Shown here piece after piece: positions 29,942 through 30,781 of a stretch of DNA of 64,000 nucleotides; positions within the stretch are counted from its first letter, which is position 1, and each line of letters begins with the position of its first letter. A program made the position numbers and the translations under genes. The notes beneath the pieces were generated by a model. The model searched no databases and was not told the origin of the DNA. It worked only from the letters and a program-made list of their open reading frames with translations. Origin of the DNA: a virus; the UHGV virus genome UHGV-0289908. The stretch is one strand, 5' to 3'.

Positions 29942-30039
29942 CCATATATAGACACGACCTCAAAAGTTTGTGAAATATTTAATTTAAAAGAACACAAAAT
30001 GAACACAACTTCACCCCGTGACCGTGGTAATATATAAGT

Positions 30040-30110
30040 GTGCTGAGGGGCACGGGTTGAGCCCCGACACAATTCGACAAATTATGTCGAAAATAAAAAA
30101 TTAAATTTTT
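30040..30110 (+). ncRNA. candidate short non-coding RNA
   Basis: Extended -10 TGGTAATAT at 30025-30033 (no good -35); downstream hairpins GGGGCacgggttgaGCCCC and TCGACAaattaTGTCGA then A/T-rich; no ORF. Confidence 0.2.
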
Positions 30111-30120
30111 TTCGAAAAAC

Positions 30121-30151
30121 TGTTGACGGTAAAATCAACATGTGATAATAT
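30121..30151 (+). promoter_or_regulatory. early sigma-A-type promoter with dyad (TGTTGAC-N-TCAACA) and extended -10
   Basis: aaaaactgTTGACGgtaaaatcaacatgTGaTAATAT. Confidence 0.65.
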
Positions 30152-30157
30152 ATAAGT

Positions 30158-30372
30158 GTGCTAAGGCACAGCATTCAGAATAGGCGTAGAAATTAAAGCC
30201 CGCATGTACTTTACGGGAAACACAAGACGTAAAGGTTGAAGTTAAAAACTCATAGCTAGGCTATGGCACTGGGGAATAATCGCCCCAGGTGAACTGATAG
30301 GCTGATAAGTTGGTTCAGATTGACGTTCTTTAGTTCGGGGGTTGAAATTCTGAAAAACGAAAAAAATTTTTT
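30158..30372 (+). ncRNA. candidate ~210-nt non-coding transcript (no ORF, structured, GTGTGCTAAGG 5' motif)
   Basis: Starts downstream of promoter at 30121-30151; contains GGGGaataatcgCCCC hairpin; ends at T-run 30373-30378 before next promoter; no RBS-associated ORF. Confidence 0.3.
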
Positions 30373-30380
30373 AAAAAAAC

Positions 30381-30411
30381 TGTTGACTTCAAAATCAACA
30401 GGTGATATACT
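30381..30411 (+). promoter_or_regulatory. early promoter with dyad TGTTGA-N8-TCAACA
   Basis: aaaaactgTTGACTtcaaaatcaacaggTGaTATACT. Confidence 0.6.
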
Positions 30412-30417
30412 TGATTT

Positions 30418-30781
30418 GTGTTGGTGAGTGTCCTAAGCAACTCGGAGGTCTAGGTGAAACCCCTCATTTGGGATATAGTGAATCGCACAGGGTCATTTCC
30501 CCGCGTGGTCACGGTTCTTTGAAAACATTATACAAAATCATAACGGGATAACCCGCAAGTCGCACGGGATAAGTAGCGAGACCCTAACATTAGAGTCGGA
30601 TGGGCGAAAAAAGAGGGGCGATAATAGAGAGTAGTATAGCATAGTGGATTGAGTGATTGAACAGGTGCTAAGGCGGGCGAACGTTTGAAGCCGTTAGAGA
30701 CTACCCGACCGCACACGTCACGAATACGGCAACATCCACAGGGACGACCAAAAAATCAAAAATCAAAAAGGACGTGATAAT
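30418..30781 (+). promoter_or_regulatory. ~360-nt GC-richer structured leader upstream of first early ORF (possible cis-regulatory RNA or additional sRNA)
   Basis: ~50% GC versus ~35% surrounding; repeated GGGATAA/GTGCTAAGG motifs; no ORF with RBS. Confidence 0.3.

Follow-up and report, generated by a model that had tools for sequence, protein, structure and literature searches.

The stretch of DNA analysed here, referred to as the window, comprises 64,000 nucleotides (nt) of the virus genome UHGV-0289908 and is identical to part of L002, a 154.6-kb contig from a human-gut metagenome, of which L001 is a 130-kb variant contig. Genes on the minus strand extend to position 27646 and are followed by 3.1 kb without real genes (27647–30781), beyond which about 22 kb of plus-strand early genes begin at 30782. 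The region under study is the last 760 nt of this gene-free stretch and contains three tandem promoters (P1, P2 and P3) and a long untranslated leader that carries a boxA-like element of the type found in the leaders and spacers of bacterial ribosomal RNA (rrn) operons. The protein encoded by the first early gene has no match in Pfam, PHROG, PADLOC or PDB, and its AlphaFold2 (AF2) model is all-helical and poor (predicted local distance difference test, pLDDT, of 55). Twelve clusters of its homologues led to the related contigs L003–L013 and L134–L143 from human and pig gut, and the gene-poor region, the tandem promoters and the long leader before the gene are kept in those relatives whose contigs extend far enough upstream. 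No relatives were found in IMG/VR by protein patterns or by four DNA patterns, nor in JGI metagenomes, where ten matches to an 18-mer are chance matches in GC-rich DNA.

Tandem promoters and the segments between them

P1, P2 and P3 lie on the same strand within 390 bp, with no open reading frame (ORF) between them. P2 and P3 are contained in one 45-nt direct repeat (D9) whose copies are 84% identical, and P3 scores 10/12 matches plus the TG in the promoter scan. Both match a 28-nt promoter pattern for which the window has 4 matches (0 expected), and a 20-nt promoter core occurs 8 times against 0.32 expected, with the exact copies, at 30121, 30381, 33209, 33881 and 38717, on the plus strand only. 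The strong promoters that the first-pass annotation had placed at 30121 and 30381 are thus borne out by their −35 and extended −10 elements, by the 45-nt repeat and by a promoter family that runs through the phage. The weaker extended −10 element that it had noted at 30025, here P1, is likewise confirmed; it has no good −35 element in the window, but a full TTGACG at 17-nt spacing is present in L005, L013 and L142. UP-element-like A/T-rich blocks precede P2 and P3, and the block at P3 agrees, in our own alignment, with 16 of the 17 specified positions of the UP consensus as it was reportedly defined by Estrem et al. in 1998. The promoter and UP part is the sole piece of the region similar to known phage promoter regions (those of Staphylococcus, Bacillus and Enterococcus phages), and searches of INPHARED (megablast, blastn and tblastn) returned no close relatives, with matches only to these parts. 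The ORF-free stretches after P2 (220 nt) and P3 (364 nt) are unusual, because the family members at 33209 and 38717 are followed by a ribosome-binding site (RBS) and an ORF within 35–45 nt.

The −35 element and spacer of P2 form an inverted repeat, CTGTTGA..TCAACA (30120–30140). Its counterpart at P3, CTGTTGA..TCAACAG (30380–30401), reads on the minus strand, as does that at P2, as a hairpin followed by TTTTTTT, which the terminator scan flags; the repeat could be an operator, a terminator of leftward transcription, or both.

The transcribed segments are GC-richer than the window, as had been claimed (G+C of 0.43–0.50 compared to 0.367), and the claim that they hold no RBS-linked ORF also stands. 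No such ORF is conserved, and the lone candidate, a leader peptide of 22 amino acids (aa) at 30454–30522 with GGAGG upstream and its stop codon inside boxA, was rejected, 1-nt indels in L001 and L004 breaking its frame. Their description as hairpin-rich fared less well, with fold z-scores of −2.2 and −1.9 for the P1 and P2 segments (T1 and T2), +1.4 for the whole leader and +0.1 for 30528–30752. An element had further been reported to recur near the 5' ends of the transcripts, at 30040, 30160, 30425 and 30675. Exact copies of GTGCTRAGG are found at 30040, 30158 and 30665 (3 matches compared to 0.38 expected; 2 of 100 shuffles reach 3), which upholds the first two positions and moves the last one from 30675 to 30665, whereas near 30425 only a partial match, GTGTCCTAAGC, is present. 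A 25-nt repeat spanning the −10 element and the first transcribed bases of P1 recurs at P2 (2 matches compared to 0.03 expected), and the GTGCTRAGG motif is absent from two of the three leader types of the relatives described below. Judged by its sequence, the shared motif is a duplicated transcript start and no independent regulatory element. A generalised UAAG(G)CG motif common to the modules was also considered and rejected, as it is not enriched in the window.

In its body, the P2 segment differs widely between genotypes. Among the phage loci searched, the 177-nt version matches the window genotype only (L002 being identical to the window), and it resembles a discrete insertion of 176–177 nt (30172–30354) bounded by the short inverted repeat CAGAAT...ATTCTG. 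An alternative body of about 85 nt occupies this place in L001, L003, L004, L005, L013, L137 and L142; across these seven relatives it keeps a three-helix shape, with one double-sided change and indel-compatible stem changes that amount to weak covariation, and an invariant single-stranded stretch of 26 nt. In L134–L136 and L140 the body is reduced to the 5' hairpin plus about 25 nt (about 40 nt), with an empty site in which CATTCA is joined to AAAACG, and in L139 it consists of the closing hairpin only. We read the P2 body as a dispensable cassette.

A boxA-like element in the untranslated leader

The leader before the first early gene measures roughly 364 nt from P3, in agreement with the ~360 nt proposed at first, and occurs in three mutually unrelated types: A1 (the window, L001, L004, L134–L140 and L143), A2 (L006–L010) and B (L003, L005, L013 and L142). 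The only block common to A1, A2 and B on inspection of the printed leaders is GTTCTTTGA.AA, i.e. GTTCT(T/A)TGA.AA, and a k-mer scan of the leaders ranked this boxA block best by total mismatch. In ten leaders boxA is found 96–130 nt from the assumed start (about 97 nt in for the P3 leader of the window), and no conserved ORF precedes it within the leader. L137 and L138 keep boxA with one substitution though the first 100 nt of the leader, which form the 5' module, are lost; the 5' module is therefore not essential. The 5' motif of the type A leader has no copy in the GTDB genomes. The 64-kb window contains one exact copy of boxA, on the plus strand, and the sole near-match (one mismatch) is on the minus strand.

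The 19-mer that covers boxA in L005, L013 and L142, GTTCTTTGAAAACTGAATA, is exact in these three contigs and is found at at least 120 bacterial loci from many phyla among the GTDB species genomes. We examined the rRNA context of 124 matches, counting as adjoining those within 1 kb of an rRNA gene in the sense orientation. By this definition, 61/124 adjoin 16S or 23S genes: 30 lie upstream of the 16S 5' site (37–253 nt in those measured), 25 follow the 16S 3' end (mostly by 70–285 nt, with three at 525–624) and 6 are upstream of 23S, while a further 16/124 lie at contig ends. The same 19-mer contains the conserved primer F2 of the mycoplasma 16S–23S spacer (PMC4312986). GTTCTTTGAAAAC is a predicted boxA of the rrn type, that of bacterial rRNA leaders and spacers. 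Only 22–24 nt around boxA match the bacterial loci fetched, and we rejected the possibility of a captured host rrn leader because there is no similarity to these loci outside boxA. A CodY-box reading of GTTCTTTGAAAAC was also rejected, since in our own alignment it agrees with the CodY-box consensus at 9/15 positions and the rrn association explains the element better.

A predicted hairpin ends 1–2 nt before boxA in 10/10 leaders folded, and these hairpins are non-homologous between the leader types; 4 double-sided changes separate the A1 and A2 versions. In the nut-like sites of rrn operons, boxB comes first and then boxA (PMC8632103), and assembly proceeds mainly via boxA bound by NusB–NusE (PMC8632103, PMC2800207). 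Pairing in the type B leaders is well kept, with 96% of cells paired compared to 38–51% with slid partners, and 7 pairs show double-sided changes with many GC/GU exchanges (four sequences). The type B leader opens with a hairpin that has GAAAGGAGG as its loop and no start codon, whereas the P3 leader of the window has only a weak 4-bp 5' hairpin plus GGAGG at 30444–30448. Two further structures were considered and rejected. A long-range pairing of the 5' and 3' parts of the leader into a stalk of the RNase III type is accompanied by some A1/A2 compensatory changes by eye, but the 5' arm is missing from L137 and L138, and shuffled sequence folds at least as well as the whole leader; TRAP-like (G/U)AG repeats at 30623–30660 amount to 3–4 phased triplets, which are too few.

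The boxA 19-mer also occurs outside rRNA operons and phages. About 28 non-rRNA matches (among L018–L123) represent one identical 120-nt sequence, present in Streptococcus, Veillonella, Peptoniphilus, Anaerotignum, Gemella and Holdemanella. In pCF10 (L144, NC_006827.2 42005-42124), the 120-nt sequence lies in a Tn916-type element, in sense orientation between orf8, which encodes a helix-turn-helix (HTH) protein, and xis, with a small hairpin, GGCU-AACG-AGCC, 3 nt upstream. These matches suggest that the Tn916 family may also use an rrn-type boxA.

Between boxA and the linker that precedes the first early gene lies an invariant non-coding module, lead3. The seven loci in which it is compared are independent metagenome contigs from human and pig gut, and in these same loci the 5' module is 93–99%, the P1 segment 82–90% and the downstream gene 72–94% identical in DNA (47–87% in protein), compared to 97–100% for lead3. 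The module contains short direct repeats, GGGCGA three times (30602, 30616 and 30675; 3 of the 9 plus-strand copies in the window) and ACGGGATAA twice (30543 and 30564), as well as a third GTGCTAAGG at 30665. With a fold z-score of about +0.1 (+0.13) on both strands it shows no thermodynamic structure signal, and its substitutions have no codon periodicity by our own count. An ORF on the minus strand (30528–30716, 62 aa) was rejected, as it has no Shine–Dalgarno (SD) sequence and its substitutions show no third-position bias or codon periodicity. Types A2 and B have unrelated sequence in the place of lead3, and at least three unrelated modules of 220–350 nt fill the place between the conserved boxA and the conserved RBS; an equivalent A/C-rich linker with an AGGAC SD is present in all relatives. 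The identity of lead3 could reflect selection, for a function in RNA or in DNA, or the recent spread of a cassette by recombination at the conserved flanks.

Table 1 Positions of the promoters, repeats, hairpins and leader parts upstream of the first early gene, with related promoters elsewhere in the window
Feature	Position	Strand	Remarks
25-nt direct repeat, copy 1 (−10 and first transcribed bases)	30024–30048	+	has GTGCTGAGG; repeat D17, 92% identity
P1, extended −10 TGgTAATAT	30025–30033	+	from sequence; −35 degenerate here; predicted start ~30039
Predicted hairpin GUGC-UGAGGG-GCAC, 5' end of P1 transcript	30040–30053	+	
Palindrome TTCGACA-aatta-TGTCGAA between P1 and P2	30073–30091		kept in the most distant relatives, L006 and L008
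A/T-rich block 5' of P2, UP-element-like	30092–30119	+	from sequence; part of 45-nt repeat D9
P2 core: −35 TTGACG (30123–30128), 17-nt spacer, TGaTAATAT (30143–30151)	30123–30151	+	
25-nt direct repeat, copy 2	30142–30166	+	has GTGCTAAGG
Predicted hairpin UGUGC-UAAG-GCACA, 5' end of P2 transcript	30157–30170	+	kept in L134 and L140 without the rest of the P2 body
P2 segment body, 177 nt	30176–30352	+	between CATTCAGAAT (30172–30181) and ATTCTGAA (30347–30354)
A-tract/T-tract 5' of P3, UP-element-like, GAAAAAAATTTTTTAAAAAAAC	30359–30380	+	from sequence
P3 core: −35 TTGACT (30383–30388), 17-nt spacer, TGaTATACT (30403–30411)	30383–30411	+	predicted start ~30418
Leader 5' module	30418–30513	+	small hairpin CCC-UCAUUU-GGG at 30460–30472; hairpin at 30478–30512 ends 1 nt before boxA
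boxA-like element GTTCTTTGAAAAC, rrn leader/spacer type	30514–30526	+	in all leader types; rrn matches of the relatives' 19-mer
Invariant non-coding module lead3, 220 nt	30531–30750	+	97–100% identity in seven loci
A-rich unstructured linker, then long SD AGGACGTGAT (30769–30778) for the first early gene	30748–30781	+	
First early gene, 251 aa	30782–31537	+	first of the plus-strand early array
Promoter-family member	33209–33239	+	contrast case; ~35-nt leader, then RBS and ORF
Promoter-family member	33881–33911	+	
Promoter-family member	38717–38747	+	~45-nt leader, then RBS and ORF

Interpretation, alternatives and genomic setting

Simple terminator scans found no terminator-like site on the plus strand in 30000–30800, and the simplest reading is that the three tandem promoters would feed one transcript, with dispensable cassettes between them. 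We favour the explanation, to which we give a probability of roughly 55% as a whole, that a large phage (about 130–155 kb) of a gut Firmicute, with a YonO-like RNA polymerase gene, has its main early control region here, and that the promoters, all of host type, direct one untranslated leader with an rrn-type boxA for termination-resistant early transcription. Host RNA polymerase would start at the sigma-A-type promoters P1 (weak here), P2 and P3 (strong, with UP-like tracts), and the three would supply one long untranslated leader and an early gene array of roughly 22 kb. The small hairpin at each transcript start, to which the GTGCTAAGG motif would correspond, may slow decay from the 5' end. 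Host NusB and NusE (S10) would bind boxA on the nascent leader RNA and, together with NusA and NusG, would render RNA polymerase fast and resistant to Rho and to terminators, and a polymerase modified in this way would cross the untranslated leader and the early genes.

If this model holds, a gut phage copies the control logic of rRNA operons with host factors alone and no lambda-like N protein, tandem UP-element promoters and a consensus boxA would yield very strong, fast and termination-resistant early transcription, and boxA-based anti-termination would be extended to Firmicute phages. The hairpin followed by GTTCTTTGAAAAC would then serve as a simple marker for the starts of early operons in uncultured phage genomes; it is also found in Tn916-family elements.

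Several points weigh against this explanation. It leaves lead3, the most conserved piece of the region, without a role. Read by eye, no leader type has a boxC-like GT-rich block after boxA, although we know of no requirement for boxC outside E. coli. Such a boxA is absent from Enterocloster phage PMBT24, whose RNA polymerase is related. The transcript starts, the read-through and the processing are all predicted, and terminators that are weak or non-canonical could escape a simple scan; some transcripts could be paused or stopped at the hairpins that precede A/T tracts (30073–30091 and the stem that closes the P2 body). Because the scan finds few plus-strand terminators to overcome in the early region, the benefit of a boxA would have to be Rho resistance or speed. 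Finally, that the host practises NusB/NusE anti-termination at boxA is an assumption made from how widely the element is distributed.

The segment after boxA (30531–30750, with non-homologous counterparts elsewhere) may instead be a functional RNA, the first phage transcript, acting as a protein-binding or sponge RNA, as a riboswitch-like sensor of the first gene, or as an anti-defence decoy cut from the leader. The near-identity of lead3 in seven contigs whose flanks and downstream gene diverge, its non-coding character with no conserved plus-strand ORF, its GGGCGA and ACGGGATAA repeats and the presence of an ArdA-like anti-restriction gene in the early operon all speak for such a role, which is compatible with the favoured explanation in that boxA would protect the untranslated RNA from Rho. 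We nevertheless consider it unlikely: lead3 has no thermodynamic structure signal (z = +0.13), its copies are too alike for a covariation test, it has no Rfam or INPHARED match, and its identity could equally stem from recent cassette spread by recombination at the boxA and RBS flanks. That the same downstream gene family is preceded by unrelated sequence in A2 and B speaks in particular against one conserved sensor. A broader variant, in which the leader after boxA is a slot for interchangeable non-coding RNA cargo that is made first and abundantly from promoters of rRNA strength and is shielded from Rho by boxA, strikes us as distinctly unlikely; if true, it would be an undescribed way for phages to express non-coding RNAs, with anti-defence decoys, protein sponges and sensors as possible cargo. 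In a similar vein, the rrn-type boxA between orf8 and xis in the Tn916 family would suggest that Firmicute mobile elements commonly borrow rRNA anti-termination.

Very unlikely in our estimation is an explanation at the level of DNA, in which the conserved features would act mainly as binding sites next to a probable replication origin and the RNA hairpins would be by-products of operators. Candidate sites for phage or host proteins are the TTCGACA boxes, the palindromes CTGTTGA..TCAACA of the promoters and the GGGCGA repeats. TTCGACA occurs 26 times against 9 expected, is clustered at 29089–30867 and forms a perfect palindrome between P1 and P2, and the promoter palindrome is found at five promoters; three DnaA boxes (29487–29530) and ACTAAAC iterons lie 0.5–1.2 kb upstream, and lead3 combines direct repeats with the lack of an RNA fold signal. 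However, the match to boxA is specific to one strand and to rrn, the many G-U pairs and GC/GU exchanges in the type B stems are sensible only in plus-strand RNA, and the promoter palindrome is missing at P3 from L005, L013 and L134. This explanation also accounts for parts only and not for the conserved distance between the leader elements and the transcript start.

Within the cluster itself, 9 of the TTCGACA copies fall in the 1.8 kb from 29089 to 30867, often as TTCGACAnnATTCGACA pairs or palindromes, and the boxes are probably the sites of some DNA-binding protein. The palindrome at 30073–30091 is more likely an operator than an RNA terminator, since TTCGACA is over-represented and clustered across the intergenic region. 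Further upstream, three perfect DnaA boxes, TTATCCACA, two direct and one inverted, fall within 44 bp (the window holds 4 compared to 0.9 expected), and an iteron-like array of ACTAAAC repeats spaced by about 19–38 nt covers 29213–29490, the interval that also contains all 5 WWTACTAAAC copies of the window (1 expected). Together with the nearby repeats, the DnaA boxes look like a putative DnaA-dependent replication origin. T-tracts phased at about 10 nt, followed by purine-rich GGGAG/GAGGG repeats, occur at 28280–28390 and 28800–28940, and their phasing suggests bent DNA; the GC skew is +0.415 for 28001–29000. An alternating purine–pyrimidine tract, ACGTGCGTGCGTGCGTGCGTACACGTGCGTACACGT, at 29898–29939 varies in length among the relatives and appears hypervariable.

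The least probable account is the main idea of the first-pass annotation, that P1 and P2 each give a separate non-coding RNA (about 75 and 220 nt) that ends before the next promoter and acts in trans as a regulator, antisense RNA, decoy or AimX-like RNA. Both segments fold somewhat better than shuffled (z = −2.2 and −1.9), the alternative P2 body keeps its three-helix shape and its invariant 26-nt single-stranded stretch in seven relatives, and two adjacent stem-loops directly after the promoter may recall the put RNAs of phages. Separate small RNAs (sRNAs) are nonetheless unlikely, because the scans found no plus-strand terminator between the promoters and the P2 body is swapped or cut in relatives: the A/T tracts that follow the segments belong to the next promoter as its UP-like blocks, the P2 body of the window is unique to its genotype and is replaced or nearly all deleted in close relatives, and the apparent P1 hairpin at 30073–30091 is the palindrome of an over-represented DNA motif. 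Of the two possibilities once offered, sRNA or cis-regulatory leader, the second is the one favoured, by the long P3 leader and the boxA behind a hairpin. The suggested analogy to AimX fails in that no aimR/aimP-like pair lies upstream on the plus strand; the 3.1 kb there hold only scattered plus-strand ORFs of up to 75 aa, the gene calls of the collection include at most one plus-strand ORF, of 49 aa, and the neighbouring 356-aa gene is divergent and without a match to AimR or to tetratricopeptide repeats (TPR). Rfam 15, searched at gathering score and at E up to 10 and covering riboswitches, 6S, tmRNA, RNase P, GOLLD, ROOL and EAR among its families, gave nothing in 30000–30800 beyond chance-level matches on promoter A/T tracts and nothing in the leaders of L003–L005. 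The region qualifies neither as an AimX locus nor as a known RNA family, nor can it be shown to be a set of sRNAs, and it serves as a warning that a promoter-driven, ORF-free stretch of a phage is not automatically an sRNA.

The early operon carries further features. A pistol self-cleaving ribozyme (Rfam RF02679) at 31875–31941 on the plus strand, with 60.8 bits compared to a gathering score of 34.5, sits between the second and third early genes within the same early transcript; it is also present at L003:7099-7164, L004:7520-7585 and L005:7462-7528, with compensatory changes in its long stem. The ArdA-like anti-restriction gene is located at 32235–32795 in the same operon, and an exact 24-nt repeat, AAAAAATTGGAGGAAATTAAAATG, at 31582–31605 and 32271–32294 forms the RBS and start of two different early genes.

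On the minus strand, a 917-aa protein (21586–24339) is a relative of the YonO-type single-subunit RNA polymerases. Its nearest relatives are YonO-like phage polymerases, with 38% for Clostridium phage c-st, about 35% for Enterocloster phages, and others in Bacillus phages, and a relative matches PF05183; late genes are probably transcribed by this enzyme. The minus-strand block also encodes a 1016-aa protein with an intein and a LAGLIDADG homing endonuclease domain (11089–14139), a 6A RNA motif (16816–16866; 42.5 bits compared to a gathering score of 41.2) and, at 17488–18828 and 18936–20087, three tRNA genes (Met, Thr and Ser) and a gene for a PnrA/Bmp-like substrate-binding lipoprotein. Between a minus-strand promoter (27819–27791, 11/12 matches) and the start of the 356-aa gene, a long, A/T-flanked palindrome at 27672–27742 (AAAAAAAGCCCCTATATTAACCCCCC...GGGGTTTTAAACAGGGGTATTTTTTTT) looks like a bidirectional terminator or an attenuator within a leader.

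Comparison with known systems

As promoter-proximal non-coding phage RNA, the segments resemble the arbitrium RNA AimX and the put RNAs of HK022, and the two adjacent stem-loops of the relatives' alternative P2 body may be likened to put. Unlike these systems, however, the phage region is without aimR/aimP genes, and its P2 body is dispensable and not conserved.

Firmicute transcripts can be stabilised at the 5' end by a stem-loop or by STAB-SD, an SD-like sequence that does not start translation (PMC4113751). The small hairpin predicted at each transcript start and the GAAAGGAGG loop of type B are similar to such stabilisers, of which the STAB-SD of cry3A is an example, whereas the P3 leader of the window has a weak 5' hairpin only; a stabilising role of the hairpins may be supposed by analogy.

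The early region of T7, as Dunn and Studier are said to have described it in 1983, has tandem promoters for the host polymerase (A1, A2 and A3) and a long untranslated leader before gene 0.3. The phage studied here likewise has three strong host-type promoters that point the same way and fit into about 400 bp without an ORF between them; several hundred nt of leader precede the first early gene, and one of the first early genes is for anti-restriction (ArdA-like). There is no sequence relation to T7, the inter-promoter segments here are interchangeable cassettes, and an rrn-type boxA is, to our knowledge, not known from the T7 leader.

The nutL and nutR sites of lambda, which act with N, provide another parallel, with boxA and a hairpin in the early leader RNA just after the early promoter, where they would let the polymerase resist termination over a long early operon. 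In lambda, boxA precedes boxB and is a weakened element that needs N, whereas in the present phage, of a Firmicute host, the hairpin precedes a full rrn-type boxA. No member of an N-like or other anti-terminator family was recognised among ten early proteins, a search that a novel small N-like protein could escape.

The closest likeness is to the nut-like sites of rRNA operons. The phage shares with rrn operons the tandem strong promoters with UP-like A/T tracts and the untranslated leader, as well as a hairpin and, directly after it, a linear boxA with the sequence of 16S leaders and 16S–23S spacers, in the rrn order (PMC8632103). It differs in that the site precedes protein-coding genes, is without a boxC-like element and has flanks that are not homologous to the rrn leaders fetched. 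By analogy, the phage leader would work like an rrn leader, and less closely like a lambda nut site.

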